DNA of 38,688 nucleotides from a virus. Its lineage: Duplodnaviria; Heunggongvirae; Uroviricota; Caudoviricetes. Of the stretch, positions 8,305-31,162 are shown piece after piece; position 1 is the stretch's first letter; every line of letters begins with the position of its first letter. The stretch lies in IMG/VR virus record IMGVR_UViG_2703718837_000002, one strand, 5' to 3'. A program made the position numbers and the translations under genes. The notes below the pieces were generated by a model. That model made no database searches, was not told the origin of the DNA, and saw only the letters and a program-made list of their open reading frames with translations.

Positions 8305-8310
8305 GTTAAA

Positions 8311-9848: not shown

Positions 9849-10406
9849 ATGAAGGGAAAAACAGCCGCAGGAGGCGGTGCAATTTGCGCTATCGCGATGA
9901 TGATTACCATCGTGATGGGTAATGGCAATGTGCGAACCAACCAGGCGGGGCTTGAGCTTATCGGAAACGCTGAAGGTTGCCGACGTGATCCATACAAGTG
10001 CCCGGCGGGTGTATGGACTGACGGGATCGGTAATACACACGGGGTAACGCCGGGTGTGCGAAAAACAGACCAGCAAATCGCCGCTGATTGGGAAAAGAAT
10101 ATCCTGATCGCTGAACGCTGTATTAATCAGCACTTCCGGGGCAAAGACATGCCCGATAATGCCTTCAGTGCAATGACAAGCGCGGCATTCAATATGGGAT
10201 GCAATAGCTTACGGACCTACTACAGCAAAGCGCGAGGCATGCGAGTAGAAACGTCCATCCACAAGTGGGCGCAGAAAGGGGAATGGGTGAATATGTGTAA
10301 CCATCTCCCTGATTTCGTGAACAGTAACGGCGTCCCCCTGCCCGGGTTAAAGATTCGCCGTGAAAAAGAACGCCAGCTTTGCCTGACGGGGCTGATCAAT
10401 GAATAA
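9849..10406 (+). CDS. lyz: SAR endolysin Lyz (185 aa)
   Basis: Starts MKGKTAAGGGAICAIAMMITIVMGNG (signal-arrest-release segment) with a GAGG RBS; near-identical to my memory of P1 Lyz; the ORF track's upstream start at 9717 is rejected. Confidence 0.85.
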   Translation: MKGKTAAGGGAICAIAMMITIVMGNGNVRTNQAGLELIGNAEGCRRDPYKCPAGVWTDGIGNTHGVTPGVRKTDQQIAADWEKNILIAERCINQHFRGKDMPDNAFSAMTSAAFNMGCNSLRTYYSKARGMRVETSIHKWAQKGEWVNMCNHLPDFVNSNGVPLPGLKIRREKERQLCLTGLINE

Positions 10407-10650
10407 ACTCCGGCAGCTCCGCCGACTTTCGACAATGAAGTTATCGCTGGCGGCGATAGTTTTCGACTCGATTTTCATGGCGGTATATGTGCTCAATGAG
10501 ACGTGGCCACTGGAACCGCTATTGTATGCCGGGCTTCGGCTGTGCCTGACATTTTTGAGCATGGCTGCGAGATTGATGCAACAGAAAGAAACCGCTTCAG
10601 ATTGTCCACGCCGCGCGGTGCGCAAATATATGGCACGCAGGCGAAGATGA
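10399..10650 (+). CDS. Small two-helix membrane protein (83 aa) coupled to lyz
   Basis: ATG overlaps the lyz stop region; two hydrophobic segments followed by an Arg-rich tail. Confidence 0.4.
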   Translation: MNKLRQLRRLSTMKLSLAAIVFDSIFMAVYVLNETWPLEPLLYAGLRLCLTFLSMAARLMQQKETASDCPRRAVRKYMARRRR

Positions 10651-10660
10651 TTTAACCATT

Positions 10661-10693
10661 ATTGCTCTAATAAATTTGATTTATTAGAGCAAA
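10661..10693 (+). promoter_or_regulatory. C1 operator, perfect 17-mer with an overlapping inverted partial copy
   Basis: ATTGCTCTAATAAATTT at 10661-10677, then TGATTTATTAGAGCAAA at 10677-10693. Confidence 0.75.
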
Positions 10694-10861
10694 TAACCTA
10701 CCATCGAACACGGCTCTATTGATCTCATCGTCGTTCAGGCTTATAGTTCCACCGTCGTAGCAAATTCTGCGACCAGGTTTGACAGCCTGAATACGAATGC
10801 GGACAACCGCAGATTTCCGATATTGCGGTATTTTTGTGTCCGTAAACCACGTTACGCCCGA

Positions 10862-10944
10862 ATTATGGTGGGGCGTGATGGGGAGGCTTCGGCCTGCTGG
10901 TTTCATTCGTGCCAGTCTGTCAACCCTGTCACGTCCTGCCACCT
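10862..10944 (+). ncRNA. c4-like antisense RNA (module A); boundaries approximate
   Basis: UUCG-capped hairpin at 10883-10896, then CATTCGT (10904-10910) and CTGTCAA (10917-10923), exactly complementary to ACGAATG and TTGACAG at the icd-like RBS (10946-10985) and at an upstream site (10778-10799). Confidence 0.5.
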
Positions 10945-10993
10945 GTTTGACAGCGGGTCGCAGGTTGTTAAACCTACGAATGAGGCCGTAACT

Positions 10994-11215
10994 ATGGTTA
11001 ATGCCAATCCTTGCGCACGCCCTGAATTTATCTGGCGCTTTTACTCCTGCCAGAAACGTCACTATCACTTCGTAATTGCACCGACAGAAGATGAGGCCCG
11101 CTCTCTGCTTCCTGACGCTCCCTGCATTTTCTCTGCCCGCTTTTCCACTGATTCGCGCAACTCTCTCAGTTACTGGTGCCTCCCTGTTAACGCTTCTGCT
11201 CAGGAGGGACTATGA
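10994..11215 (+). CDS. Icd-like small protein (73 aa)
   Basis: ATG at 10994 preceded by GAGG; ATGA overlap with the Ant-like gene; FIWRF...EDEAR..L...C.F.AR pattern resembles Icd-like proteins; the ORF track's longer 10823 start is rejected. Confidence 0.6.
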   Translation: MVNANPCARPEFIWRFYSCQKRHYHFVIAPTEDEARSLLPDAPCIFSARFSTDSRNSLSYWCLPVNASAQEGL

Positions 11216-12303
11216 GAACGTCATTAGTCACCCGTGAAGAAATGATTGAGGCAATTGAACAGCACACATCCTGTATCAGTACCAGGGATATACCGGGTGT
11301 TATTGCCAACTACTTCATGATCACCAAACAACTTTACCGGAGAAAGGACAAGAACGCGGTTCACCGCATTCTGTTGTCTGATATCCGCGAATACCTGCTC
11401 GAACAGGGTCGTCTTGATTATGCAACCGTAACCGCCGAAGCACGCAAGGAGGCACACAGGATGAAAGCAACTAATGTTAAATCAGAAAAAATTACCCTGC
11501 CTTCAGTTCAGGAATCCGAGCTGGTGGTTGTTCAGAATCAGTCTGATGAAATTCCCGTTCTGGAATGGCTGGGAGTGCGTGTCGTAACGACCGAAACTCT
11601 TGCTAGAGGGTATGGTACCGATGAAGCCAATATTCGTAAAAATTTGTCTCGCAACTCCGATCGCTTTGAAGAAGGCAAGCATTACTATCTCTTAACCGGT
11701 TCAAAGTTAAAGGAATTTAAAAGGCTAGTGACTATTAGTCACTTGGTTAGCAAATATACAAGTCAGGTAATTCTCTGGACAGAGCGCGGCGCTGCACGCA
11801 TGTCTAAGATCGTGGACACAAATGAAGCATGGGCATTCTTTGAAAAACTGGAAGACAGCTACTTCCGACAAAAAGAACAGCAACCGGTCTCAATTCCCCA
11901 GACGCTTCCAGAAGCTCTGCGCCTGGCTGCCGAGTTGGCAGAACAGAAAATGCAACTGGAACAACAGCTGGTGGCCGCAGCCCCTAAAGTCGATTTTGCC
12001 GACCGGGTATCAGTGGCTAAGGGGATCCTGATTGGAAATTTTGCAAAGGTTGTTGGACTTAAGCAAAACGCGCTGTTTGCCTGGTTACGGGAGAACGGCA
12101 TCCTGATTGCGTCCGGCGGACGTAAAAATGTACCGTTTCAGCAGTACATAAACGCCGGGTATTTCACGGTGAAAGAAGTGGTGCTGGATGATGAAGATGG
12201 CTACCAGATACGGTTGACGCCCCAGCTAACGGGGAAAGGCCAGCAGTGGCTGACGCGTAAACTGCTCGATGCAGGTTTATTAAAGCCTGTAGCGGCTGAG
12301 TGA
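11212..12303 (+). CDS. Ant-like antirepressor paralog A (363 aa), Bro-N/ORF6N-like centre and KilA-C/Ant-like C-terminus
   Basis: Translationally coupled to the icd-like ORF as in P1 immI; about 90 percent identical to paralogs B and C outside a divergent central patch. Confidence 0.7.
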   Translation: MRTSLVTREEMIEAIEQHTSCISTRDIPGVIANYFMITKQLYRRKDKNAVHRILLSDIREYLLEQGRLDYATVTAEARKEAHRMKATNVKSEKITLPSVQESELVVVQNQSDEIPVLEWLGVRVVTTETLARGYGTDEANIRKNLSRNSDRFEEGKHYYLLTGSKLKEFKRLVTISHLVSKYTSQVILWTERGAARMSKIVDTNEAWAFFEKLEDSYFRQKEQQPVSIPQTLPEALRLAAELAEQKMQLEQQLVAAAPKVDFADRVSVAKGILIGNFAKVVGLKQNALFAWLRENGILIASGGRKNVPFQQYINAGYFTVKEVVLDDEDGYQIRLTPQLTGKGQQWLTRKLLDAGLLKPVAAE

Positions 12304-12315
12304 TTAAATTAAAAA

Positions 12316-12333
12316 GGCGGCCTTTCGGCCGCC
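12316..12333. terminator. Hairpin GGCGGCC-TTTC-GGCCGCC (also present after Ant B at 25815-25832)
   Basis: Perfect 7-bp stem; A-run upstream gives a T-run on the minus strand, so it may terminate the convergent pro transcript. Confidence 0.45.
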
Positions 12334-12347
12334 AGTGATTTCAGATA

Positions 12348-12373
12348 CCCCGGCAGCCGCCGGGGTTATTTTT
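12348..12373 (+). terminator. Intrinsic terminator after Ant A
   Basis: Stem CCCCGGC/GCCGGGG followed by TTATTTTT. Confidence 0.6.
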
Positions 12374-12378
12374 GGTGG

Positions 12379-15109
<2,731 letters not shown>

Positions 15110-15175
15110 TTAATTAGAATAATTCACATCGTGTTTGAACGGAATTTAACACTAGTCACTTGTTAAGGATTACCA

Positions 15176-18100
15176 ATGAACAAGCTATCTATGGGGGTGT
15201 TTCGCTGTTCAAGTGTCAGCGAAATATTGAAATATATTAGGGCAATAACATTTCGCCGAGCGCCGATTAAATACGGCGTGGAAAAGGTGGAAGGCAAAAG
15301 CTATGACCGACTGCGCCGGGAGGCGAATCAGAAGGCGATAGATTTGCTTAATTCGCTGGTGGACGGCGCGACACTGACAGATGAACAGCGCCAGATCCTG
15401 GCTGGGTACACCGGTGAAGGCGGCATTGGCGGGTCCGTCTCCGAATATTACACACCAAAGCCGATCGCTGAAGGTGTCTGGGAGATCATGAAGCTCTACG
15501 GCGCGGACGTAGGTAACACTCTGGAACCATCGGCGGGAACCGGCGTTTTTAATGAGACAAAACCGGTTGGTACGGTGATGACCGCGACTGAGATCAGCAG
15601 TGTTTCCGGTCGTATAAACCAGTTGTTACACCCGGAAGACAGCGTACAGATTTCCCCGTTCGAACAGCTGGCTATAAGCACCCCTAACGATTCATTCGAC
15701 CATGTTGTGGGTAACGTTCCGTTCGGCGGTCGTGATAACACACGCAACATCGATAAGCCTTACGCAGAAGAAACGGACATGGGTTCTTACTTCATGCTCC
15801 GCATGCTGGACAAGATAAAGCCTGGCGGATTCATGTGTGTGATTGTGCCGCCGTCAATTGTTTCAGGTTCAAACATGAAGCGGTTACGCCTGCGCCTATC
15901 CCGTAAAGCTGAATTTCTTGGCGCTCACCGCTTGCCTACCGGTACTTTTGACGCAAACGGGACCAGTACAGTCGTTGATGTGGTGCTGATGCGCAAACAT
16001 CCGGCAGAGATGGCTGAGAAAATCCCCCTGGTGGATGAAAGCACTCTTGAATCGGCAAATGTGCTTTGGCCAACGTTTATTTCTGGCAAGTGGTTTGAAA
16101 AGGACGGCCGCCGGTTTGTTCATGGTACCCAGGAAAAGGGCTTCCAGGGGCGTATTGAGGTTCGTGCCGACGGGCAGATTGATAACCAGGCTCTTAAAGC
16201 GAAGCTGATTCATCGTTTCGAAAGTCGTATCGACTGGTCTTTGCTCGATATGGCTGAACCGTCACCGACCGCAGATGTTGTTGATGAAGGGGAAATGCGC
16301 CTGATTAATGGCGTATGGCAAAAATATGCTGGTGGTCGCTGGATTGAAGCTGATGCTGGTAAGGAGCTTAAGATTGATGCTGCCAGTTATGGCGCGGATA
16401 GCTGGGAGGCTCTTCAGCGTAACCTGACTACAACAGAAGGCCGTCTCGGTATGACATTTACCCAGATGGCAAATGTCCGCGATAAGTACACCACATCAAT
16501 CAGCGACGATATGGTGCAGCTGGTGGACTGGATTAACAGCCAGCCTGAAAAATACCGTGAACGCTTGTATCGCGGGGCGATGATTGGCCGGATGTTAATT
16601 GAATATCAGGATATGAAGGCCGCTGGGCATAGTGCTGAACAAATCGAACAGCAGCGCCTTTCTCTGGTGTCCCGTTTGCAGGCAGAGATTGACCGTTTTG
16701 GTAACCCCGGTCGCGGTCCGATAGCTAAATTATCGGGAAGCGGTGCGCGCGCCTGGTTTGCTTTCCGTGGTGCAATTAAGCTGGATGGCACTATTTCTGA
16801 CGAGCTGACAGGAAAGCTGGTTACGCATGATTCCAGCGCCAGTTATGACTCCACCAGCTATCAGGACACCCTGCGTTATCTCTATAGCGATCTTACCCGC
16901 GATCCAATCCAGCTCGATGATTTCCGCCTTGCGTTTACCGGCGAACTGCCAGCCAGTGATGAAGAGTTGCTTAATTTATTGGCCAGCACCCCTGGTATTG
17001 CGGTTTCACCGTATGGCGGGATTGTTCCGTTCGCCCGCGCCACCAGCGGCGACATTAACGAGATAGTGGCTCCAAAACAGGAATTCCTTGCCACACTCCC
17101 CGACGGTCCAGTAAAGAACAACGTCCTTAATCAGCTGGCAGCGATCGAAGAGAAGCGCATCAAGACGCCAGCAGAGAATATCCGCTTTAAGCTCAATAGC
17201 CGTTGGTTCGACCGCTCCGTCATTCTGGAGTTTTTGCAGGAAAACGGCTATCCGGATCTGCGCTATGTGCAGTCAGTGCAGCTGGAAGGCGACGAAATGG
17301 TTTCTGACACCTATCACGGTGGTGATGGTCTGTTCGTCGGACACCGATACGGTGTCGTCCAGCGCAAGGATAAAGAAACAGGAGAGATCCGCTACGAGTG
17401 GGACCGTAAATCAGGTGAAAACGCGACCGGGTTCCCGGCACAGCTGGAAAAGTATCTCAATGGTGCGCGTATCGGTGGCAAAGATAGCGCGACGGCGAAC
17501 GGCTACCGCGAGCAGATGGCACTGCTTGAGGACCAGTTCAATAAGTGGATCAAGACGCACGATCGCTACGATGAGCTGGTTGCCAAATACAACGATGTGT
17601 TCAATAGCAATATCCCGTATGAACACTCTGGCGATCCGCTTGGGTTGAAGGGATTAAGCGGTAAGCGCCAGCCATTTGATTACCAGAATAGCGAGGTGCG
17701 CCGACTGTCCGAAGATGGGCGCGGCATCCTGGGCTTCGGTACCGGGCTGGGTAAAACCACGACCGCGCTGGCGCTTGAGGCGTTCAACTATGAGAACGGT
17801 CGCTCCACCCGTACTGCTTATGTAGTGCCTAAATCAGTGCTGGAAAACTGGTATTACGAAGCAAAAGAGTTCCTGAGTGAAGAAGCCTTCAGTAACTACT
17901 TGTTCGTTGGACTGGATGTACTAATGGACGGCGATCAGATTCGCCAGGTTCCGGTGCTCGATGAGAACGGTAAACCTGTCCTTGGTGCTGATGGCACTCC
18001 ACTTATGCGCGATGCCCTTAAACTGGCAGATGAAGCCACTATCACGGCGCGTATGAACGCGATCCCGCACTCAAATTACCGTGCAGTCGTGTTTACCAAA

Positions 18101-21100
18101 GAACAATACGCCCGCATTCCGCTACGTGATGACACCGTAGATGAGCATGCACAGGATATGCTTTATGACTTCGTTGCTGCCGGGCGCGTAGCCAGCGCAA
18201 TGGACTCCGACTCCCACCGCAAAGAGGCCGCGCGTCGCCGGGTATTGTCGGAGTATTCAGATACCGGTACCGAAAAAGCAGAGAAGTATCCGTACTTTGA
18301 GGATATGGGCTTCGACAGCGTGATTGCTGACGAAGGCCACAACTACCGCAATAGCTATAAAAATGGTCGCGAAGCGTCACAGCTGGCCTATCTGCCCACC
18401 AGCGCGGTGGCGCAATCGGCGCGAGATATGGCAATCAAAAACGCGTACCTGATGAAAAAGAATGGTGGGCGTGGACCGGTTCTCCTGACTGCAACGCCAG
18501 TCGTTAACACCCCGATCGATGCATACAACATGCTTTCTCATGTTCTGCCGAAGGAATACTGGCAGAAGATGGGGATCTACGGTCCTGATGACTTCGTTAA
18601 ATTCTTCGGCAAGACCAGGCTGGAAACGGTACAGAAAATTAGCGGTGAAGTTGAAGAAAAAATGGCGCTGGTGGGCTTTGAAAACCTTGATGCGCTGCGC
18701 GGTATATTCCATCGCTGGGTAACGCTTAAAACGGCGGAAGACGTTAAGGATACCGTGGAGATCCCGGAGCTGGACGAACACCAGCAGGATGCACCACTTA
18801 CTGAAGAACAACTGGCGGCGTATGAAGAATTGCGTCAGCAGGCGGAAGCGGCGGCCAAAGCCAACAATGGCGTAACGACCTCGGTCAATGAAGACGGCGT
18901 GATTGAGCACGAGAAAGCCCGTCCGATCTTCTCAATAATCAGGGATATGGACCGCGTATGTACTGACATGGACCTGTACTATCGCCGGATCACCTATCGT
19001 TTCCTGCCGGAGTATGCCGATGCGGTGCAGCAGCTGGCGGACAGTTTGCCTAAACAAGCCACCAGCGAAGACGACGACAGTGATGATTCAATCACGCAGC
19101 AATCGCAATACTCCCTGATAGATAAGGGCGAGTTTATTCAGTTGCAGGTTCCGGAAGCGTTCGAGCAGGAAGTGAATAAGCGCCTGGCCAGGTTTGGCAT
19201 TGACGAACAGACCGTAACTCACCCCGTTACGCCCAAATACGCGAAGCTGATTGCCACGCTGAAGGAGTTTTTCCCGGAAGGTAAGCAAATCATCTTCACG
19301 GACGAAAAAACGCAGCACCAGAAGCTCAAGCGCATTATCTGCAATGCTCTTAACCTTGAACCTTCAAAGGTGGGGATCCTGAATGCTCAGACGGTTGCCG
19401 AGGCAGGTAAAACCGGTAAGAAACTGAAAGCGGTTAAACCGCCGAAAGAGTTACCGGATGAACCAACAGATGCACAGATAGCGAAATACAACGAGCAAAT
19501 GGCTCTGTATGACGCCTATATCGCGCAGCAAAATGAAATGTCGTTGGGCGGTCTGGAAAAGATTGCAGCCGACTTCCAGGAGGGCCGGACTCCGATCATC
19601 ATCTGCAACAAAAAGGCAGAGGTGGGTATCAACCTGCATCGAGGAACGACTGACATCCATCATCTGACGTTGCCGTGGACTCCAGCCAGTATCGCACAAC
19701 GTAACGGTCGCGGTGCCCGAGTTGGCTCCAACCGTGCAAGCGTTCGCGTTCACTACTACTGCGGCAAGGGTTCTTTCGATGAATACCGACTGAAGACGCT
19801 GAAGCGTAAAGCAGGCTGGATCTCCGATATCCTCCGTTCAGATAAGTCAGAAATGGAGAACGCCGACGCCAACGATATGATCGAAATGCAGATGTATACC
19901 GCTAAGGATGATGGCGAACGTCTGGCAATGATGCAGGTTCAAATGGATAAGGCGAAAGCCGCGCAACGCGCTCGCCAGAAAGAACAGGCTACTATCGACC
20001 TTCAGAACTACATCAAGGCGCAGCACGCAGCTGGCGAGGATGTGGAGGTACTTACCGCTGAATTAGAGCGAAGCAAAGCGGAACTTGAAAAGACCACCGC
20101 CGACGTCGACAAATTCAAACAAGCAGCAATGGCCAAAGCAGCTGATAACGCAGACTGGAAGGCACGTTGGGGGAGTGTCCATAACGCTGACCGTATGTTG
20201 TTAGCTCGATATCGCGCTTCGTTAAAAAATGCTATTCAACAGAAGGCTAATATCTCTCAAGCCATCTCCCGCTATGAGAAATTATTGAACCGTACCCAGA
20301 AGGCCGCGACGGATATCAAACGCCTGCGCCCGCTGGTGGAGGATGCAATAAATAAAGGCATTCTGGATGTTGATCCTGACCTGGTTAACCATGCGAGTGA
20401 GTTCCTTGTTATCGGCGATCGCTCATGGCGTGTAGGCCAATACTATGATTGTGCCGGTGATATCGTCCGCATTAAGTCTCTGGACTTCGACAGCCAGCGC
20501 GCAGACGTGGAGATCATCTTTACCTTCAAAGGCACAAAATCTGGTAACTGGGATGTGAAGACGCTGGATAAACAGGTGGATGTAACTCCCGATGAAGATG
20601 CTGTTATGCAGAAAATCAGTGGTGGCGTCTCCATCGCCGGGATTAACGACATCATTTCCTGTGACGATTTCTACCGTTTCCAGCAGCGCGGCATGATCAA
20701 AATCACTGACTCGTACGGCGTTCAGACTACAGAGTCAGGCTATAGCATTGATTTTGTTGGTACCTATACGGACCCACTGAAGCATGCGGTTTACCCGGAT
20801 CGCCGTGACGGCGCGCTGAAGTCGTCAATTGCAAAATGGGTGCTTGGTATGATGTCTGAAGGGAATAACCGCCAGGTCCGTTTGGCAGAAGTATTCCTGA
20901 CTGAACTGTTTGGCTCCAATTATGGCGATGTAATCGCGTCATATGGAGATACGCTATCCCCTGAAGCAATTCAGGAGAAAATAGCGGATGCGATCGCCAG
21001 AATGCCGGAGAAAACAAGCCAGGGGGCTACTCGTAACGGGGATTCTGAACTTGAGGTCACCAATGCCATTTTCGGTACCCATGAGTTCCGGGCGTCAGAT

Positions 21101-21943: not shown

Positions 21944-21976
21944 CAGGAGCGCCCGGTTCGCCGGGCGTCGCATAAT

Positions 21977-22417
21977 ATGGCCACACTATCTGATACAATA
22001 AAACCGAATAAAACATATCTTGAGGCGGTACTCCGTACAGCGTTGTTAGGAAAGACAGAAGACGAATACGTTGATTTCTTCCTGTCAGGGCTACGCGGGC
22101 GATTACTGAAAAATCCCCGCCTGTACCGCAGCTATGGTCCATACTGGCCGGAAATTAAAAAATTATTACTGGAGCGCGGTTATGGTAATTTCGGTCGTCT
22201 CGTTGACCGTGACGTTCGCAAAATTTATCGTTATGACCGCCCGGCGCTAACACTCATAGCCGCGACGCTCTACAGCCAGGAGCGTTTTGATAATGGTCAG
22301 ATATACTCAGCCTGGCATTTACTGCCAGTGCCTGAAGAAGTTGACGACCAGGACTATGAGTTTGAGTCTTACGATTTGGAAGTTGAAGCCTTGGCACAGG
22401 CTGGAGAGAAAACTTGA
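21977..22417 (+). CDS. ulx: Ulx-like protein (146 aa)
   Basis: Immediately downstream of darB; by position. Confidence 0.5.
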   Translation: MATLSDTIKPNKTYLEAVLRTALLGKTEDEYVDFFLSGLRGRLLKNPRLYRSYGPYWPEIKKLLLERGYGNFGRLVDRDVRKIYRYDRPALTLIAATLYSQERFDNGQIYSAWHLLPVPEEVDDQDYEFESYDLEVEALAQAGEKT

Positions 22418-22662
22418 AAAAGCGATACTACACAGTAAAGCATGGGACGCTACGAGCATTACAAGAGTTTGCTGACAAGCATAACGTTGAGGTGCGCAGG
22501 GAAGGGGGAAGTAAAGCTCTGCGCATGTACCGTCCGGACGGGAAATGGCGTACGGTCGTCGATTTCAAAACTAACAGTGTTCCCCAAGGCGTCCGCGATC
22601 GGGCATTCGAAGAATGGGAGCAGATCATCATAGATAACGCATTGCTCCTTAATGCTGATTAA
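22414..22662 (+). CDS. lxc: Lxc-like small protein (82 aa)
   Basis: ATGA overlap with ulx; by position and size. Confidence 0.45.
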   Translation: MKKRYYTVKHGTLRALQEFADKHNVEVRREGGSKALRMYRPDGKWRTVVDFKTNSVPQGVRDRAFEEWEQIIIDNALLLNAD

Positions 22663-22670
22663 TGGTTTTG

Positions 22671-22710
22671 TTTCCCGGTATCGTATTATACCGGGAAATA
22701 TCTTTTTATA
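22671..22710 (+). terminator. Intrinsic terminator closing darB-ulx-lxc
   Basis: Stem TTTCCCGGTAT/ATACCGGGAAA with 6-nt loop followed by TATCTTTTTATA. Confidence 0.65.
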
Positions 22711-23109
22711 TTAACCCGCGGCTGCAATTAGTGCCGACCCAACCGCCAGTGTGGTGACAAGGCCTATAATGACGACTGTAGCTGTTACCCCACCTGCAAC
22801 AGCTGCTCCAGTCTTTGTTTTGGATAACTCTTTCTTTTCTAGAGAAATGATTTCACCCATAGGAATAGACTGGTTGTTAATACCATTGATATATTGTGGG
22901 GTAACGTTCGATACTGTCATTTCACCTTCGCTACCTGATTTTAACTTGTATTTAATTAGGTCACCAGCATATATCGGTGGCTCTGTTAAATAATAGGTAC
23001 TTCTTTCAAGGTTTTTTTGCTTTATGTTAACTCCTTGATAAGACTGACATCCACATAACACAAGTGATAAAATTAGCGTCATCAGTAAATTTCTTTTATT
23101 TTTTATCAT
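22711..23109 (-). CDS. Small envelope protein (about 132 aa): signal peptide with LCGC lipobox-like motif, C-terminal Gly/Ala-rich membrane anchor
   Basis: Strong AAGGAGAAGGAG RBS 8 nt before ATG at 23109 (the track's GTG start at 23118 is less likely); low GC; ends on the lxc terminator. A TTGACA with an imperfect -10 lies upstream. Confidence 0.6.
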   Translation of the reverse strand: MIKNKRNLLMTLILSLVLCGCQSYQGVNIKQKNLERSTYYLTEPPIYAGDLIKYKLKSGSEGEMTVSNVTPQYINGINNQSIPMGEIISLEKKELSKTKTGAAVAGGVTATVVIIGLVTTLAVGSALIAAAG

Positions 23110-23243
23110 TGTCTGCACTCCTTCTCCTTTTCTTTGTATAGCTAAAACAAATCATTTATTCTTGTCAAATAGTTTTTAGTTTGAGAGTGAGGTTTACGTG
23201 ACGATGCTCTAAAAGTTGCAGATAGCGGTAAAGATAATTTTAT

Positions 23244-23912
23244 TTACAATATGTTACCTTTTCCGGTAAGTATACCTTGCGGTACTTTTCTTTCCCCCAT
23301 AAGTTGAGTGGCATGAATGATATTAATAAATGACATTAGTTGTGATGAACTCTGATTCACATTTATCTTTCCAGCCATTGCCCTGATGTAGTCAGCGCTG
23401 GCAACGTTGTTGTATTCCGTTGCGAAGCAGCATAACAACGTCAGAACGTGCTCTGTCGTTATTTCACTCCAGTTGATGTTGAAAAATTCATCGCCTTTTT
23501 TGTCGTGTTCGGAATCGAAGATGCTTTGGTGGAGGATATATTTGCCGGATTCCTTGCGCGGTAACTTTATCGCTTTCTGGCGTTCCAATTCCTTGTAAAT
23601 CTGCATTGCTTCAATCAGTACCGGTCTGCCGTTCATGAAGGGATCACGCAACCTTACACGCTGGCCAACTCGACCGGTAATAAAGCTGTTTTCCTCTTCC
23701 ACCAGCACGATAAAACCCTTTTCCTCTTTTTCTCGCAATTCGCGCAGCAGCTGGAGTTCCATATCGCGGCGGCGCTCAGGGTAGCTGGTCCGCTCAGCCA
23801 TTATCAGCTCATTGTTGATCCATGCAGCAGTCATTGACGCCGGTTTGCCGACGCTCATTGAAACAACGCATATTTTCTTATCCATAGCGCCCCTACAAAA
23901 AAGAAAAGCCAC
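23244..23912 (-). CDS. Hypothetical protein (213-222 aa) with a charged coiled-coil-like segment
   Basis: Maximal ORF; more likely start is MDKKICVV at 23885; no assignable domain; low GC. Confidence 0.5.
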   Translation of the reverse strand: MAFLFCRGAMDKKICVVSMSVGKPASMTAAWINNELIMAERTSYPERRRDMELQLLRELREKEEKGFIVLVEEENSFITGRVGQRVRLRDPFMNGRPVLIEAMQIYKELERQKAIKLPRKESGKYILHQSIFDSEHDKKGDEFFNINWSEITTEHVLTLLCCFATEYNNVASADYIRAMAGKINVNQSSSQLMSFINIIHATQLMGERKVPQGILTGKGNIL

Positions 23913-24144
23913 CAGCGGCGGCTTAGCAAAACAACTGAAGGTAGCGCCCGGTACTCAGACTGTGCCGTCCATGGAATATTTGAAAAGGGATCCATCCGTA
24001 CCGGGCGTGTGATGATTCTGACTCAAGTCACTTGTCAGTTGTCAATTATTTCAGATTAAAAATAATATATTTATTAGTGCATACAATTAAAACAATAAGT
24101 GTGCACATTGCAACCTCGGAGAGGAAACATTCAACCAGATTGTT

Positions 24145-24161
24145 ATTGCTCTAATAAATTT
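24145..24161 (+). promoter_or_regulatory. C1 operator (perfect 17-mer)
   Basis: ATTGCTCTAATAAATTT. Confidence 0.75.
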
Positions 24162-24346
24162 GATTTATTGAAACAAATAAACTACTATTGGACGCCAGAC
24201 TATTGATCTTCCTGTTGTTCAGGCTTATAGTTCCTACGTCATAGCAAATTCTGCGACCGGGTTTAGCAGCCTGAATGTACATGCGGACAACCGCAGATTT
24301 CCGATATTGCGGTATTTTTATGTCCGTAAAACCGCGTTACGCCCGA

Positions 24347-24429
24347 ATTATGGTGGGGCGTGATGGGGAGGCTTCGGCCTGCTGGTTTCATGTACGCCAG
24401 TCTGCTAACCCCGTCACGTCCTGCCACCT
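24347..24429 (+). ncRNA. c4-like antisense RNA (module B); boundaries approximate
   Basis: Same scaffold as A, but core elements CATGTAC (24389-24395) and CTGCTAA (24403-24409) complement GTACATG and TTAGCAG at the B target sites (24262-24283 and 24431-24470). Confidence 0.5.
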
Positions 24430-24478
24430 GTTTAGCAGCGGGTAGCAGGTTGTTAAACCTGTACATGAGGCCGTAACT

Positions 24479-24700
24479 ATGGTTAATGCCAATCCTTGCG
24501 CACGCCCTGAATTTATCTGGCGCTTCTATTCTTGTCAAAAACGTCACTATCACTTCGTTATCGCACCAACAGAAGATGAGGCACGTTCTCAGCTTCCGGA
24601 TGCTCCCTGCATTTTCTCCGCCCGCTTTTCTACCGATTCGCGCAATTCTCTCAGTTACTGGTGCCTCCCTGTTAACGCTTCGGCTCAGGAGGGGCTATGA
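24479..24700 (+). CDS. Icd-like small protein (73 aa)
   Basis: Paralog of the module A icd-like ORF; GAGG RBS overlapped by the antisense target. Confidence 0.6.
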   Translation: MVNANPCARPEFIWRFYSCQKRHYHFVIAPTEDEARSQLPDAPCIFSARFSTDSRNSLSYWCLPVNASAQEGL

Positions 24701-25809
24701 GAACGTCATTAGTCACCCGTGAAGAGATGATCGAGGCAATTGAACAGCACACTGCCTGTATCAGTACCAGGGATATACCAGGTGTTATTGCCAACTACTT
24801 CATGATCACCAAACAACTTTACCGGAGAAAGGACAAGAACGCGGTTCACCGCATTCTGCTAACCGATATCCGTGAATACCTGCTCGAACAGGGTCATCTG
24901 AATTATGCAACCGTCGCAGCCGAAGCACGCAAGGAGGCACACAGAATGAAAGCAACTAACGTTAAATCAGAAAAAATTCATGCACCTTCAGTTCAGGAAT
25001 CAGAGCTGGTGGTTGTTCAGAATCAGCCTGATGAAATTCCCGTTCTGGAATGGCAGGGAGTACGTGTCGTGACAACCGAAACTCTTGCTAGAGGGTATGG
25101 GACCGAAACTAATAACATCAAAGTTAACTATACGCGTAATGCTGATCGCTTTGAGGAAGGTAAACATTACTTTCTACTAACTGGTTCAAAATTAAAAGAA
25201 TTGAAGGACAAGGTTACTCAAAGTAACTTAGTCGCACCGCGAGCAAAGCACCTCACTCTCTGGACGGAACGCGGCGCAGCCCGCCACGCTAAAATGATCG
25301 AAACCGATCAGGCATGGGCATTCTTTGAAAAACTGGAAGACAGCTACTTCCGACAAAAAGAACAGCAACCGGTTGCAATCCCCCAGACGCTTCCAGAAGC
25401 CCTGCGCCTGGCTGCCGAACTGGCTGAACAAAAGCAACTTCTGGAACAGAAAGCCCACCAGCTAAATCAGCAGCTGGTGGCCGCAGCCCCCAAAGTCGAT
25501 TTTGCCGACCGGGTATCAGTGGCCAAGGGGATCCTGATTGGGAATTTTGCAAAGGTTGTTGGACTTAAGCAAAACGCGCTGTTTGCCTGGTTACGGGAGA
25601 ACGGCATCCTGATAGCGTCCGGCGGACGTAAAAATGTGCCGTTCCAGCAATACATCAACGCCGGGTATTTTTCTGTGAAAGAAGTGGTGCTGGATGATGA
25701 AGATGGCTATCAGATACGACTGACGCCCCAGTTAACGGGGAAAGGCCAGCAGTGGTTGACGCGTAAACTGCTCGATGCTGGCTTGTTAAAACCGGTGGCG
25801 GCTGAGTGA
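24697..25809 (+). CDS. Ant-like antirepressor paralog B (370 aa)
   Basis: ATGA-coupled to the icd-like ORF; Bro-N/KilA-C-like architecture. Confidence 0.7.
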   Translation: MRTSLVTREEMIEAIEQHTACISTRDIPGVIANYFMITKQLYRRKDKNAVHRILLTDIREYLLEQGHLNYATVAAEARKEAHRMKATNVKSEKIHAPSVQESELVVVQNQPDEIPVLEWQGVRVVTTETLARGYGTETNNIKVNYTRNADRFEEGKHYFLLTGSKLKELKDKVTQSNLVAPRAKHLTLWTERGAARHAKMIETDQAWAFFEKLEDSYFRQKEQQPVAIPQTLPEALRLAAELAEQKQLLEQKAHQLNQQLVAAAPKVDFADRVSVAKGILIGNFAKVVGLKQNALFAWLRENGILIASGGRKNVPFQQYINAGYFSVKEVVLDDEDGYQIRLTPQLTGKGQQWLTRKLLDAGLLKPVAAE

Positions 25810-25956
25810 TTAAAAAAGGCGGCCTTTCGGCCGCCAATGATGTCACGGAGTCTGTAATAGCAATGTCTTTGTAGTTGACTAATTATATAAATAAATTATA
25901 GCAATTATATGTGGTTTGCTTATCGGGAATCACATTTCCTCACTTCAGTACCTATG

Positions 25957-26043
25957 TGCTATACTCCTTTTTGATTGATTGATTGGATGCGGAACACAAA
26001 CCCGCTCTTTTGTGCAGCCTGGCTCCTTGCCAGGCTTTTTTTA
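25957..26043 (+). ncRNA. Candidate small RNA: extended -10 promoter to intrinsic terminator, about 70 nt
   Basis: TGcTATACT at 25957-25965; terminator stem GCCTGGC/GCCAGGC (26017-26035) plus T7; contains a TTGA x3 tract; 3' end overlaps the convergent 103-aa ORF stop. Confidence 0.3.
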
Positions 26044-26352
26044 TTTCATCATGGAAGCTGTTAACGCTTTGGACCTTGCTGAACTGATTGAAAGGACATT
26101 GTTAACCTTACCCAAGAGTTCGCCAAACTCAGACATCACTTTAGCAAAACCACGCCGTGCTTCTTCCTCGGTGGCATTCATCACGAAATGTTCAGCACTA
26201 CGCATACTTTTGACAGGGAACGCAACGGATATTGAGTCAATATCAGGCATTCTATCGCTCAGCTTTACAGTGACAATGACGGCTGGCGACTGAATATTAG
26301 TGCTTACAGACAGCACTACATATTTTACGTCGATGTTGAAATCCTTTCTCAT
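26041..26352 (-). CDS. Small protein (103 aa) downstream of cre
   Basis: ORF preceded by a C1 operator-like site; function unknown. Confidence 0.45.
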   Translation of the reverse strand: MRKDFNIDVKYVVLSVSTNIQSPAVIVTVKLSDRMPDIDSISVAFPVKSMRSAEHFVMNATEEEARRGFAKVMSEFGELLGKVNNVLSISSARSKALTASMMK

Positions 26353-26368
26353 ATGTCACCATAAATAT

Positions 26369-26385
26369 CAAATAATTAGAGCAAT
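26369..26385 (-). promoter_or_regulatory. C1 operator-like site (3 mismatches)
   Basis: CAAATAATTAGAGCAAT between the cre stop and the 103-aa ORF start. Confidence 0.35.
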
Positions 26386-26402
26386 CATTTGCACGTTAAA
26401 GG

Positions 26403-27434
26403 CTAATCGCCATCTTCCAGCAGGCGCACCATTGCCCCTGTTTCACTATCCAGGTTACGGATATAGTTCATGACAATATTTACGTTGGTCCAGCCACCAG
26501 CTTGCATGATCTCCGGTATTGAAACTCCGGCGCGGGCCATATCTCGCGCGGCTCCGACACGGGCACTGTGTCCAGACCAGGCCAGGTACCTCTGGCCAGA
26601 GTCATCCTTAGCCCCGTAAATCAATCGGTGAATTGCTTCAAAAATCCCTTCCAGGGCGCGAGTTGATAGCTGGCTGGTGGATGATGGCGCGGCAACACCA
26701 TTTTTTCTGACCCGGCAAAACAGGTAGTTATTCGGATCATCAGCTACACCAGAGACAGAAATCCATCGCTCGACCAGTTTAGTTACCCCCAGGCTAAGTG
26801 CCTTCTCTACACCTGCGGTGCTAACCAGCGTTTTCGTTCTGCCAATATGGATTAACATTCTCCCACCGTCAGTACGTGAGATATCTTTAACCCTGATCCT
26901 GGAAATTTCGGCTATACGTAACAGGGTGTTATAAGCAATCCCCAGAAATGCCAGATTACGTATATCCTGGCAGCGATCGCTATTTTCCATGAGTGAACGA
27001 ACCTGGTCGAAATCAGTGCGTTCGAACGCTAGTGCCTGTTTTGCACGTTCACCGGCATCAACGTTTTCTTTTCGGATCCGCCGCATGACCAGTGAAACAG
27101 CATTGCTGTCACTTGGTCGTGGCAGCCCGGACCGACGATGAAGCATGTTTAGCTGGCCCAAATGTTGCTGGATAGTTTTCACAGCCAGACCACGCGCCTG
27201 AAGATATAGAAGGTAATCGCGAACATCTTCAGGTTCTGCGGGAAACCATTTCCGGTTATTCAACTTGCACCATGCCGCCCACGACCGGCAAACGGACAGA
27301 AGCATTTTCCAGGTATGCTCAGAAAACGCCTGGCGATCCCTGAACATGTCCATCAGATTCTTGCGAGCCTCATCACTCGTTGCATCGACCGGTAATGCAG
27401 GCAAATTTTGGTGTACGGTCAGTAAATTGGACAT
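26403..27434 (-). CDS. cre: Cre site-specific tyrosine recombinase (343 aa)
   Basis: Near-identical over full length to Cre as I recall it, with about four substitutions; catalytic region ...RYLAWSGHSARVGAARDMARAG...; loxP 415 bp upstream. Confidence 0.97.
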   Translation of the reverse strand: MSNLLTVHQNLPALPVDATSDEARKNLMDMFRDRQAFSEHTWKMLLSVCRSWAAWCKLNNRKWFPAEPEDVRDYLLYLQARGLAVKTIQQHLGQLNMLHRRSGLPRPSDSNAVSLVMRRIRKENVDAGERAKQALAFERTDFDQVRSLMENSDRCQDIRNLAFLGIAYNTLLRIAEISRIRVKDISRTDGGRMLIHIGRTKTLVSTAGVEKALSLGVTKLVERWISVSGVADDPNNYLFCRVRKNGVAAPSSTSQLSTRALEGIFEAIHRLIYGAKDDSGQRYLAWSGHSARVGAARDMARAGVSIPEIMQAGGWTNVNIVMNYIRNLDSETGAMVRLLEDGD

Positions 27435-27441
27435 TTAACAC

Positions 27442-27663
27442 TCAGATAATGGTTTTAAGTAAAGTGTACAGGATCGGCTCTGCCTTTACCTGTTTATGGT
27501 TCTCGTCATAGAAACGCCAGCGACCGCGCGTGCGTTCTATTTTCTCTTCACCGCGCGATAATGACAGTTGACAACTATCACGATCAAACCCTTTTGCCCG
27601 CCAGTAACCACGGTTTTTCTCAAGCTCAATATGAGTGGACACTTTAGCAGCTGAATATCCCAT
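27442..27663 (-). CDS. Small ORF (73 aa) between loxP and cre; coding status uncertain
   Basis: Same strand as cre and immediately upstream; no recognisable motif. Confidence 0.25.
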   Translation of the reverse strand: MGYSAAKVSTHIELEKNRGYWRAKGFDRDSCQLSLSRGEEKIERTRGRWRFYDENHKQVKAEPILYTLLKTII

Positions 27664-27852
27664 TTTTCACCTCTGATTGATTGGTGGTGCTAAGTGCGCT
27701 ACGCGAAATCTGGAGCACTAACACTGCCAACATTTCGCAGATTTTACGTAGCGCAACCTTGATCAAATGATCAAGTGATCACTATTTGAGCTGATAAGGT
27801 ATTGAACTGTATGGATTTACAGGTAAATTAATTATGTTCAATAACCCTTAAT

Positions 27853-27886
27853 ATAACTTCGTATAATGTATGCTATACGAAGTTAT
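27853..27886. other. loxP: loxP recombination site
   Basis: Exact ATAACTTCGTATA-ATGTATGC-TATACGAAGTTAT. Confidence 0.98.
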
Positions 27887-27929
27887 TAGGTCTGAAGAGG
27901 AGTTTACGTCCAGCTGCGCATAAAAATCA

Positions 27930-27946
27930 AGAATTATTAGAGCAAT
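27930..27946 (-). promoter_or_regulatory. C1 operator-like site (2 mismatches)
   Basis: AGAATTATTAGAGCAAT. Confidence 0.45.
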
Positions 27947-28005
27947 AAATTTTGAGAGAAAAATCCCACTCCACCAGCCAAAAACTGGATTGTTTTTCAT
28001 AGTTG

Positions 28006-28034
28006 TTTGACAATTGCTCTAATAAATTATAGTT
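28006..28034 (+). promoter_or_regulatory. Sigma70-type promoter with embedded C1 operator (P99-like), reading toward coi-c1
   Basis: TTGACA (28006-28011), 17-nt spacer containing ATTGCTCTAATAAATTA (28013-28029), then TATAGT (28029-28034). Confidence 0.65.
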
Positions 28035-28267
28035 TTGCCGCCGTTTCGTAATACGACTTTGGATTCACTATTTAATGTGTCTTCAGCGTTGTAGAGCGGC
28101 TCAGAAGGAAATGAGCAAACAGGGAAACCTTATACAACGGCATTACAGCTATGCATTGCTCATCTTACACACAGCGCAATGTTGTTAGATTACCCCAGCA
28201 TGGATCATGGGTGAAACAGTAGGTCAGAGCTTCAGGCTCTGTGTTGTCAATACAGTGAGGCATAATT

Positions 28268-28477
28268 ATGGCTTTCATTCCACCAACCATCGACGACGTT
28301 AGACATTGCTCTAACGCTTTATCTGTAGACCCCGCCGAAACCGACGCTGCCCGCGCCATTGCTGAACACTACTCAAAGATATCCAATCAGGAGTACCGCA
28401 TCACCCAAGACGACCTGGATGATCTCACTGACACAATCGAATATCTCATGGCCACTAACCAGCCAGACTCACAATAA
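28268..28477 (+). CDS. coi: Coi-like C1 inactivator (69 aa)
   Basis: 69-aa ORF immediately upstream of c1 on the same strand, as in P1 immC. Confidence 0.65.
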   Translation: MAFIPPTIDDVRHCSNALSVDPAETDAARAIAEHYSKISNQEYRITQDDLDDLTDTIEYLMATNQPDSQ

Positions 28478-28523
28478 ATGCACTAATAAATCTATTATTT
28501 TCGTTGGATCCTTCTATAATGGT

Positions 28524-28564
28524 GGCCAACAACTCCCAGTGTAATCCGCTGTGAGTTGTTGGCC
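28524..28564 (+). promoter_or_regulatory. Perfect 12-bp inverted repeat in the coi-c1 spacer
   Basis: GGCCAACAACTC-N17-GAGTTGTTGGCC; TATAAT at 28515-28520 just upstream; GGAGGAGG RBS of c1 just downstream. Confidence 0.4.
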
Positions 28565-28587
28565 ATGTCAATTCTGGAGGAGGATCA

Positions 28588-29439
28588 ATGATAAATTATG
28601 TCTACGGCGAACAACTGTACCAGGAGTTCGTCAGCTTCAGGGATCTCTTTCTAAAAAAAGCTGTTGCACGCGCCCAACACGTTGATGCCGCCAGCGACGG
28701 TCGTCCTGTTCGCCCGGTTGTCGTTCTGCCGTTCAAAGAAACGGACAGCATTCAGGCTGAAATTGATAAATGGACTTTAATGGCGCGGGAACTGGAACAG
28801 TACCCAGACCTCAATATCCCAAAGACTATTTTATATCCAGTGCCTAACATCCTTCGCGGTGTGCGTAAGGTTACAACTTATCAGACAGAAGCTGTGAACA
28901 GCGTCAACATGACCGCTGGCCGCATTATTCATCTGATTGATAAGGACATTCGCATCCAGAAAAGCGCGGGGATCAATGAGCACAGTGCGAAATACATAGA
29001 GAACCTGGAAGCAACAAAAGAGCTAATGAAGCAGTACCCGGAGGATGAAAAATTCCGTATGCGTGTACACGGCTTTAGCGAAACAATGCTGCGCGTCCAT
29101 TACATTTCCAGTAGCCCTAACTACAATGATGGTAAATCAGTTAGTTACCATGTGCCGCTGTGTGGTGTGTTTATCTGCGATGAAACTCTCCGTGATGGAA
29201 TCATCATCAACGGTGAATTCGAGAAAGCAAAATTTAGCCTTTATGACTCTATAGAACCGATCATCTGCGACCGCTGGCCGCAGGCAAAAATATATCGCCT
29301 GGCAGATATTGAAAATGTAAAAAAACAAATTGCCATCACTCGCGAAGAGAAAAAGGTCAAATCAGCCGCATCAGTTACGCGCAGCCGTAAAACCAAGAAG
29401 GGGCAGCCAGTAAACGACAACCCCGAAAGCGCGCAATAA
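28588..29439 (+). CDS. c1: C1 repressor of lytic functions (283 aa)
   Basis: Starts MINYVYGEQLYQEFVSFRDLF, 283 aa, matching P1 C1; its operators are scattered across the window. Confidence 0.93.
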   Translation: MINYVYGEQLYQEFVSFRDLFLKKAVARAQHVDAASDGRPVRPVVVLPFKETDSIQAEIDKWTLMARELEQYPDLNIPKTILYPVPNILRGVRKVTTYQTEAVNSVNMTAGRIIHLIDKDIRIQKSAGINEHSAKYIENLEATKELMKQYPEDEKFRMRVHGFSETMLRVHYISSSPNYNDGKSVSYHVPLCGVFICDETLRDGIIINGEFEKAKFSLYDSIEPIICDRWPQAKIYRLADIENVKKQIAITREEKKVKSAASVTRSRKTKKGQPVNDNPESAQ

Positions 29440-29443
29440 ATTA

Positions 29444-29470
29444 TGCCCGGCATCAACCGGGCATTCTTCC
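29444..29470 (+). terminator. Intrinsic terminator after c1
   Basis: Stem TGCCCGG/CCGGGCA with 6-nt loop followed by a T-rich tract. Confidence 0.5.
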
Positions 29471-29471
29471 A

Positions 29472-30584
29472 TTATTCAGCCGCCACCGGTTTTAACAAGC
29501 CAGCATCGAGCAGTTTACGCGTCAACCACTGCTGGCCTTTACCCGTTAATTGGGGCGTCAGCCGTATCTGGTAGCCATTTTCATCATCCAGCACCACTTC
29601 TTTCACCGTGAAATACCCCGCGTTGATGTACTGCTGGAACGGCACATTTTTACGTCCACCGGACGCTATCAGGATGCCGTTCTCCCGTAACCAGACAAAC
29701 AGCGCGTTTTGCTTAAGTCCAACAACCTTTGCAAAATTCCCAATCAGGATCCCTTTAGCTACTGATACCCGGTCGGCAAAATCGACTTTAGGAGCGGCGG
29801 CCACCAGCTGCTGATTTAGCTGGTGGGCTTTCTGTTCCAGAAGTTGCTTTTGTTCAGCCAGCTCGGCAGCCAGACGCAGGGCTTCTGGAAGCGTCTGGGG
29901 GATTGCGATCGGTTGCTGTTCTTTTTGTCGGAAGTAGTTGTCTTCCAGTTTTTCAAAGAATGCCCATGCTTCATTTGTGTCCACGATCTTAGACATGCGT
30001 GCAGCGCCGCGCTCTGTCCAGAGTGTAAGGCTTCTGGCGTTCTTACCAACAGAGTAACTTCCGGTTACTCTGTTCTTAAATTCTCTTAATTTTAAACCAG
30101 TTAGAAGAAAGTAATGCTTACCTTCTTCAAAGCGGTCAAGGTTGCGAGACAAATTGTTGCGAATATTGGCTTCATCGACCCCATACCCTCTAGCAAGAGT
30201 TTCGGTTGTCACGACACGTACTCCCTGCCATTCCAGAACGGGAATTTCATCCGGCTGATTCTGAACAACCACCAGCTCTGATTCCTGAACTGAAGGTGCA
30301 TAAATTTTTTCTGATTTAACGTTAGTTGCTTTCATTCTGTGTGCCTCCTTGCGTGCTTCGGCTGCGACGGTTGCGTAATTCAGATGACCCTGTTCGAGCA
30401 GGTATTCACGGATATCGGTTAGCAGAATGCGGTGAACCGCGTGTTTGTCCTTTCTCCGGTAAAGTTGTTTGGTGATCATGAAGTAGTTGGCAATAACGCC
30501 CGGTATATCCTTGGTACTGATACAGGCAGTGTGCTGTTCAATTGCCTCGATCATCTCTTCACGGGTGACTAATGACGTTCTCAT
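29472..30584 (-). CDS. Ant-like antirepressor paralog C (370 aa)
   Basis: ATGA-coupled to the icd-like ORF; full-length paralog of A and B. Confidence 0.7.
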   Translation of the reverse strand: MRTSLVTREEMIEAIEQHTACISTKDIPGVIANYFMITKQLYRRKDKHAVHRILLTDIREYLLEQGHLNYATVAAEARKEAHRMKATNVKSEKIYAPSVQESELVVVQNQPDEIPVLEWQGVRVVTTETLARGYGVDEANIRNNLSRNLDRFEEGKHYFLLTGLKLREFKNRVTGSYSVGKNARSLTLWTERGAARMSKIVDTNEAWAFFEKLEDNYFRQKEQQPIAIPQTLPEALRLAAELAEQKQLLEQKAHQLNQQLVAAAPKVDFADRVSVAKGILIGNFAKVVGLKQNALFVWLRENGILIASGGRKNVPFQQYINAGYFTVKEVVLDDENGYQIRLTPQLTGKGQQWLTRKLLDAGLLKPVAAE

Positions 30585-30802
30585 AGTCCCTCCTGAGCAG
30601 AAGCGTTAACAGGGAGGCACCAGTAACTGAGAGAGTTGCGCGAATCAGTGGAAAAGCGGGCAGAGAAAATGCAGGGAGCGTCAGGAAGCTGAGAACGGGC
30701 CTCATCTTCTGTCGGTGCAATAACGAAGTGATAGTGACGTTTCTGGCAGGAATAGAAGCGCCAGATGAATTCAGGATGAGTTGGGGTAGGGACAGTAGCC
30801 AT
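30581..30802 (-). CDS. Icd-like small protein (73 aa) with a distinct N-terminus (MATVPTPTHPEFIW...)
   Basis: AAAGGAGG RBS; first nine residues differ from A and B, the rest is conserved. Confidence 0.6.
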   Translation of the reverse strand: MATVPTPTHPEFIWRFYSCQKRHYHFVIAPTEDEARSQLPDAPCIFSARFSTDSRNSLSYWCLPVNASAQEGL

Positions 30803-30857
30803 AATGGCAGCCTCCTTTGACTAAGTTAAGGAGCTACCGCGTGAGGTCTCAATCTCA

Positions 30858-30930
30858 ATGGCGGTAGCACTGACTGGGTTGAGACTACCGGCGTCAAAGG
30901 GAACCGGCCTGCCTTTCGGCAGCCCAGCCA
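30858..30930 (-). ncRNA. c4-like antisense RNA (module C); boundaries approximate
   Basis: Minus-strand GAAA-capped hairpin (30908-30925), then CCCTTTGAC (30893-30901) and GTCTCAA (30879-30885), complementary to GTCAAAGG(AGG) at the RBS (30811-30821) and TTGAGAC (within 30845-30859); the same two target motifs recur upstream at 31018-31044. Confidence 0.4.
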
Positions 30931-31142
30931 GCACTACCATTGATTTCGGAGCTAAACGCTACGTATGGCTGTGCGATGGCATGACACAAAAAAAAGACGC
31001 TTTCGGCGTCTGTGTCGCCTTTGACATTATTCGGGGTCTCAATCCCGGCACCCGTTTTAATGAGGTGCCTGATAAGCATAAACCGAAAATGCCTCAAGGC
31101 GCAAGAGGTCAGGTTCAATGTAACATCGGCAGTTAAAAAACA

Positions 31143-31160
31143 CAATTTATTAGAGCAAAT
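31143..31160 (-). promoter_or_regulatory. C1 operator-like site at the 5' edge of module C
   Basis: Minus strand reads ATTTGCTCTAATAAATTG. Confidence 0.55.
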
Positions 31161-31162
31161 AT

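Follow-up and report, generated by a model that had tools for sequence, protein, structure and literature searches.

Heteroimmunity between the phages P1 and P7 is the textbook case in which a few bases of an antisense RNA set immunity specificity, and it has been treated as a two-allele curiosity. In P1 the elements responsible belong to a single immI operon, annotated between sim and kilA/repL. The difference between the two phages has been ascribed to a small number of changes in the loops of the c4 RNA, the a' and b' loops being the parts that recognise the targets (PMC12197685; PMC6906374). Here we analyse a 38,688-nucleotide stretch of DNA from a Caudoviricetes virus (IMG/VR record IMGVR_UViG_2703718837_000002), which we call the window and whose numbering we use throughout. 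The sequence argues, with a probability that we put at about 70%, that three further immI-type operons, complete and apparently functional, are present in the window and act as independent antisense-controlled locks.

The backbone of the window is P1-like phage-plasmid DNA in the orientation opposite to that of the P1 reference, with the gene order darA/ddrB, lyz, pro, prt, darB, lxc, mat, c8, cre, c1, pacB, pacA and phd/doc. P1, P7, SJ46, RCS47 and many others match it at 96-98% identity by megablast, and a direct BLAST comparison with P1 gives collinear blocks that are 94-99% identical with few interruptions, the exception being the 3' end of pacB at 86%. A repeat search identifies three related stretches of about 1.7 kb within this backbone, two direct and one inverted, which are 82-96% alike. 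We refer to these as cassettes A, B and C, and set their edges by BLAST against P1. Cassette A (10647..12346, plus strand; junctions 10646/10647 and 12346/12347) takes the place of 19 bp of P1 at the end of lydD, inside the predicted lydE gene and just before the 3' end of pro. Cassette B (24083..25811, plus strand) is an exact replacement of ref and lies between mat and c8. Cassette C (29439..31164, minus strand) lies between the stop codons of c1 and pacB, where it replaces the 27-bp spacer of P1. The three sites are therefore the lydD/pro junction, the ref slot and the c1/pacB spacer, and the canonical sim / kilA-repL position is not occupied by any of the three cassettes.

Most of the initial annotation of this DNA, made from the sequence without database searches, agrees with these boundaries. 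It had proposed three c4-icd-ant units within P1-syntenic DNA, which is borne out by matches to the Rfam C4 family, by the icd and ant open reading frames (ORFs) and by the BLAST junctions, and a single immI at another location in P1, as the annotated P1 operon adjoining sim/kilA/repL confirms. The junctions also place units between lyz and pro (cassette A) and between c1 and pacB (cassette C), as had been suggested. The remaining unit had been assigned to the slot equivalent to res/mod, and this was wrong: cassette B replaces ref, and a different replacement, of 707 bp, occupies the res/mod slot (22663-23369).

Alignment of the 5' regions shows that every annotated element of P1 immI (Oc4, P1c4, a1, b1, c4, a2, b2, icd and ant) has a counterpart in each cassette, in the order C1 operator, promoter, a1/b1 leader, C4 RNA, a2/b2, icd and ant. 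The Rfam C4 family (RF01695, gathering score 45) matches at 10861-10946(+), 24346-24431(+) and 30857-30944(-), with scores of 69.8 bits for A, 70.8 for B and 75.4 for C, and the predicted fold of the three C4 RNAs is that of the P1 and P7 C4. The leaders of A and B match the Rfam c4-a1b1 family (10741-10793 and 24225-24277), and the leader of C is isrK-like (RF01394, gathering score 50; 30990..31068, minus strand, 59.8 bits). Sites matching the C1 operator consensus, ATTGCTCTAATAAATTT, number 12 in the window against 0.22 expected, and a 17-mer at the 5' edge of each cassette matches it with no mismatch in A (10661-10677, plus strand) and B (24145..24161, plus strand) and with 2 mismatches in C (31143..31159, minus strand). 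A promoter scan and alignment to the annotated P1 immI bring the cassette promoters into register with P1c4/P51b of P1; promoter A (10719..10747, plus strand) consists of TTGATC, a 17-nt spacer and TATAGT, and promoter B (24203..24231, plus strand) has the same two motifs. At the other end of the regulatory region, b2 reaches into the icd Shine-Dalgarno sequence, and icd overlaps ant by 4 nt (ATGA) in all three cassettes.

The operators of cassettes A (10661-10693) and B (24145-24180) have a further feature, in that a second, inverted operator half-site directly follows the perfect C1 operator; in A this half-site spans 10677-10693 on the minus strand and has 3 mismatches to the consensus. From their sequence these operators look bivalent or palindromic, whereas Oc4 of P1 is annotated as monovalent.

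The pairs of a' and b' loops in cassettes A, B and C differ from one another and from the pairs of P1 (a' CTGTCAA, b' CACTAAC) and P7 (a' CTGCTAA, b' CACAATC). C4-A, an antisense RNA of 77 nt (10867..10943, plus strand), carries b' CATTCGT (10904-10910) and a' CTGTCAA (10917-10923). C4-B, also of 77 nt (24352..24428, plus strand), carries b' CATGTAC (24389-24395) and a' CTGCTAA (24402-24408), and the 79-nt C4-C (30860..30938, minus strand), a more distant member of the family, carries b' CCTTTGAC (30893-30900) and a' GTCTCAA (30879-30885). Within each cassette a1 and a2 are exactly complementary to a', and b1 and b2 to b', over 7-8 nt at all four sites. The targets of C4-A are a1 (TTGACAG, 10779-10785), b1 (ACGAATG, 10793-10799), a2 (10947-10953) and b2 (10976-10982, overlapping the icd Shine-Dalgarno sequence), and those of C4-B are a1 (TTAGCAG) and b1 (GTACATG) within 24263..24283, a2 (24432-24438) and b2 (24461-24467), all on the plus strand. 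In cassette C, on the minus strand, a1 (TTGAGAC, 31036-31042) and b1 (GTCAAAGG, 31018-31025) lie inside the IsrK-like leader and are followed by a2 (30846-30852) and b2 (30814-30821). The suggestion in the initial annotation that the three units have three antisense specificities is thus supported at the level of the sequence codes, as the loops and the four target sites of each cassette change in step.

This pattern extends to related operons. In a set of 17 distinct P1-type leaders, drawn from the window, P1, P7 and IMG/VR, 21 of the 42 alignment columns within the six recognition elements are variable, compared with 32 of the 238 columns outside them (Fisher p = 5e-7). We also surveyed 90 cassettes with full flanks, comprising those of the window, P1, P7, three plasmids and 79 IMG/VR loci found through the Icd protein. 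All 90 are self-complementary at all four sites. They represent 14 a' x b' types, a minimum given that the sample is small and biased, and matching at both a2 and b2 occurs in just 2 of the 182 ordered cross-pairs between types. Loop combinations are shuffled in this set, with the P7-type a' paired with five different b' loops. Because the transcript has its sites in interleaved order (a1, b1, b', a', a2, b2), one crossover cannot yield a new self-consistent type. Together, these comparisons of sequence provide strong evidence for genuine pairings and for selection that holds each cassette self-recognising while the types diverge. RNAduplex calculations between the C4 loop regions and the targets ranked the cognate combination best in every row, although stems inflate these values and we do not use them as evidence of orthogonality; a count of 7-mer matches in any register was too permissive.

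The protein-coding part of the operon is equally complete, with icd and ant ORFs intact in all three cassettes. The Icd proteins have 73 aa (icd-A, 10994..11215, plus strand; icd-B, 24479..24700, plus strand; icd-C, 30581..30802, minus strand) and are 74-82% identical to P1 Icd (81% for cassette A), the N-terminus of the cassette C protein deviating in line with its different b2 and ribosome-binding-site region. Icd inhibits cell division and has FtsZ as its target (PMC11897509). The Ant proteins have 363-370 aa (ant-A, 363 aa, 11212..12303, plus strand; ant-B, 370 aa, 24697..25809, plus strand; ant-C, 370 aa, 29472..30584, minus strand) and contain the Pfam ORF6N and ANT/KilAC domains. They share 60-62% identity with P1 Ant1, their N- and C-terminal parts being conserved, and retain the internal Met84 at which Ant2 starts in P1. 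Thus Ant-A, by Pfam and alignment to P1 Ant1, has a P1-Ant-like N-terminus, an ORF6N middle domain and a KilAC/ANT C-terminus. The ORF6N domain was not found in the Ant1 proteins of P1 and P7. In the C-terminal domain synonymous codon differences far exceed non-synonymous ones (31 to 4, 33 to 7 and 17 to 5), from which we infer purifying selection. Intact icd and ant genes under such selection suggest that the antirepressor side of the operon matters as much as the RNA side. The window contains one C1 repressor gene (28588..29439, plus strand; 98.8% DNA identity to that of P1), and C1 is presumed to be the common target of the three Ant proteins.

An alternative, which the initial annotation had also raised, is that the Ant variants inactivate different repressors, either the C1 variants of P1-like phages or repressors of unrelated prophages, and that the C4 differences only keep the switches apart. 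When Ant-A, Ant-B and Ant-C are compared with one another, the N- and C-terminal thirds are 91-97% identical and the ORF6N middle domain, absent from P1 and P7 Ant1, is the most divergent part at 73-83%; here non-synonymous changes equal or exceed synonymous ones (31 to 28, 20 to 16 and 29 to 22). However, mosaic recombination could account for this excess, as could relaxed constraint; there is almost no variation in the N- and C-terminal parts that the proteins have in common with P1 Ant1, and the window has a single c1 gene. We therefore regard a division of repressor targets as unlikely.

If the cassettes are instead independent locks on antirepressors that share a target, their operation can be sketched by analogy with P1 and P7. 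Each C4 RNA would be cut from its own transcript, a step carried out by RNase P in the P1/P7 operon family, and its a' and b' loops would pair with a2 and b2 at the icd ribosome-binding site to block icd translation. The block on icd would in turn prevent ant expression through translational coupling and (Rho-dependent) polarity. Because the three two-part codes do not match one another, the cassettes should act as independent locks. A lysogen would then silence the antirepressor of any incoming P1-like phage that shares any of its codes, which would broaden its immunity. In a phage entering a foreign P1-type lysogen, a cassette whose code is missing from the resident would make Ant, which would inactivate the shared C1 and so allow the phage to overcome more lysogens. 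Such release of Ant in foreign lysogens would explain why whole cassettes are kept and not c4 genes alone.

Several considerations weigh against this account. Defence alone needs only the c4 genes, and multi-immunity by itself leaves the intact icd-ant unexplained. The codes are not wholly distinct, as cassette A has the a' of P1 and cassette B the a' of P7; were pairing at one site enough to repress, the independence of the codes would be incomplete and partial cross-talk would be possible. Binding of C1 by Ant-A, Ant-B and Ant-C is an assumption, because their ORF6N middle domain is absent from P1 and P7 Ant1. The canonical immI lies outside the window, and our cassette count covers the window only. 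Among 12 genomes with co-resident cassettes the types are all different in 11, but about 83% of random pairs also differ and the comparison is confounded by site lineage.

Two pairs of co-resident cassettes in other elements deserve mention. In IMGVR_UViG_2698536372_000019 (2092-3957), two 100%-identical starts of c1-pacB-type cassettes occur at a contig end at a distance of 1566 nt. This pair, the sole case of identical codes within one genome, is either a tandem duplication or an assembly artefact. In E. coli pMTY1886 (NZ_CP128972.1, 11525-16156), two cassettes in opposite orientations flank mat, one in the true res/mod slot and the other in the ref slot. They have the same b' (CGTAAGT) and differ only in a' (CTGCTAA versus CTGTCAA), and thus constitute a natural test of whether a' alone separates specificities.

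We assessed how widespread the arrangement is by querying PLSDB with each cassette together with about 750 bp of flank on either side. A cassette fills the c1-pacB site in at least 259 of the 804 matching records, the ref site in 56 of 826 and the lyz-pro site in 11 of 780. The junctions of cassette A recur in E. albertii crane plasmids, whose 99% identity to the window is confined to this cassette. Among complete E. coli genomes the best records match the query at about 96% identity over 91-97% of its length, and the source of the window is not among them. A query with the conserved Ant C-terminus matched 1015 places in 667 records, and an evenly spaced sample of these matches suggests that most records hold one or two copies and about 5% hold three. 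E. albertii plasmid pEA50_2 (NZ_CP117572.1) has cassettes at all three sites of the window as well as a canonical P7-type immI; its four cassettes have four different codes, and the code at its c1-pacB site is unlike that of cassette C. The true res/mod slot occupied in pMTY1886 represents a fifth site, and the phage vB_EcoM-673R5 carries a c1-pacB cassette.

Judged against complete P1-like genomes, the three-unit arrangement that the initial annotation had singled out is therefore uncommon yet not unique, pEA50_2 being one example. The novelty of its positions is weakened, as roughly one P1-like plasmid in three has its c1-pacB site filled and the insertion is in print (PMC6906374). Venturini et al. 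(2019) described ant between pacB and c1 in RCS47 and pTZ20_1P, which is the site of cassette C, and, for pSvP1, homologues of icd-ant located in the res-mod region (PMC6906374); a second c4-icd has also been reported in the D6-like pYU39_89 (PMC6799933). In these two papers the insertions receive passing mention without analysis of the C4 RNA or its specificity, whereas in the window three co-occur and their codes are shown to differ. We found no paper on multiple immI specificities, RNA codes or stacking, although immI diversity may have been treated earlier.

The junctions also bear on how the cassettes spread. No terminal inverted repeats or target-site duplications are present at the junctions, and no recombinase or transposase ORF lies inside the cassettes; in the light of this we rejected transposon-like insertion. 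The 3' end of cassette A contains a GC-rich hairpin (12316..12333) that matches the backbone terminator beside the ref-slot site. In P1 itself this hairpin belongs to the backbone beside ref, the P1 copy differing in the loop. It thus seems that a cassette in the ref slot was the source from which cassette A was copied, and that part of the adjoining flank came with it. The simplest inference is that the cassettes spread by recombination between co-infecting relatives. Beside cassette C, the 3' end of pacB (31165-31569) is only 86% identical to P1, compared with 96-99% in the surrounding backbone, which suggests that this cassette arrived with some flanking DNA.

Spread of this kind could also be that of selfish or hitch-hiking units, propagated by recombination at a few permissive hot spots with no benefit to the phage in immunity range. 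Clean cassettes of about 1.7 kb at five or more sites across plasmids are consistent with such units, as is the ref-slot flank in cassette A, an instance of copying from cassette to site. Their persistence would follow if loss of the C4 RNA released toxic Icd and Ant, with Icd inhibiting cell division via FtsZ (PMC11897509). Deletion of a whole cassette, however, removes toxin and antidote together and makes for weak addiction, and neither the inverted repeats and target duplications nor the recombinase of a mobile unit was found. The strict upkeep of many codes is, moreover, better explained by selection on who represses whom, and we consider purely selfish spread improbable, more so than a division of Ant targets. 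That the cassettes are redundant recent duplicates of one immI without functional difference, or mis-assembled repeats, as their 82-96% identity over most of their length might suggest, is highly improbable. The recognition loops change in step with every one of their targets, and an assembler would neither collapse nor duplicate three copies that diverge this far. The recurrence of the junctions, with identities of up to 99%, in independent complete plasmid records (11, 56 and 259 of them) for practical purposes rules out an assembly artefact.

The reading of the cassettes as independent locks leads to a broader proposal, which we advance tentatively and rate at somewhat less than an even chance. 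In this proposal the combinatorial a' x b' code and the stacking of up to four or five orthogonal cassettes reflect an RNA-based, multi-allelic arms race of immunity and counter-immunity within one phage family. If so, each added cassette would widen both the range of relatives that a lysogen resists and the range of lysogens that the phage can overcome. Since the sites are interleaved, a new type can arise only if three changes are coordinated in each site class, so that selection for new codes would have to be strong. Our survey suggests that natural P1-like phage-plasmids possess a large number of such alleles, and that a single element often has several. In E. coli, Salmonella and E. albertii these phage-plasmids commonly carry resistance genes. 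Should the codes be orthogonal in vivo, they would largely decide which phage-plasmids coexist, exclude or induce each other, and thereby affect the spread of this cargo. The cassettes would also serve synthetic biology as ready-made orthogonal pairs of RNA repressor and target.

A few other features were noted in and around the cassettes. Cassette A truncates the 3' end of the frame matching P1 lydE, a predicted antiholin (10503-10700), and leaves lydD (10399-10650) intact. Downstream of ant-C there is a terminator-like hairpin (29443..29464, minus strand; terminator scan). The 707-bp segment at 22663-23369 stands in place of the 6.4-kb mod-IS5-res region of P1, alters the 3' end of mat and carries a 135-aa ORF (22711-23118, minus strand) without a Pfam match. 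Further away, between an isaA-like ORF and ssb, a stretch of about 680 bp without a P1 counterpart (8301-8984) contains a 225-aa ORF (8311-8988, minus strand) with a Tad2-like C-terminal domain (Thoeris anti-defence 2-like, PF11195, E = 1.6e-22). The ORF may be an anti-defence cargo gene.

Among known systems, the CI RNA of P4 with its seqA and seqC sites resembles the cassettes, by comparison of descriptions, in that a processed small RNA likewise pairs with sites upstream and downstream on its own transcript, and it has been considered a structural relative (PMC4825925). Unlike the cassettes, the P4 system controls replication genes through transcription termination, has no antirepressor and is present as a single copy.

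For the leader of cassette C, a close known system is the isrK-orf45-anrP locus of the Salmonella prophage Gifsy-1. This leader matches the Rfam isrK family and, as in Gifsy-1, ends in an intrinsic terminator; downstream of it come an RNA resembling C4/STnc1160, a small ORF and an antirepressor whose translation is coupled (PMC4825925). The terminator of cassette C (30995-31011 plus a T-run, minus strand; terminator scan) is strong and separates a1/b1 from C4. In Gifsy-1 the short IsrK leader RNA turns on translation in trans (Hershko-Shalev et al. 2016, PMC4825925), and by analogy the terminated leader of cassette C may be a separate small RNA that modulates the switch. Cassette C differs from the Gifsy-1 locus in having P1-type icd and ant genes downstream and a P1 C1 operator upstream, with no antQ nearby.

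The closest relative remains the immI operon of P1 and P7, with which the cassettes share the order of elements, the upstream C1 operator and the placement of specificity in two short loops. They depart from it in being present as three copies at non-canonical sites, in their new a'/b' codes and in the ORF6N middle domain of Ant. The window thus presents a stacked variant of a known system, the parts of which are well known and extra copies of which are already present in many public records.

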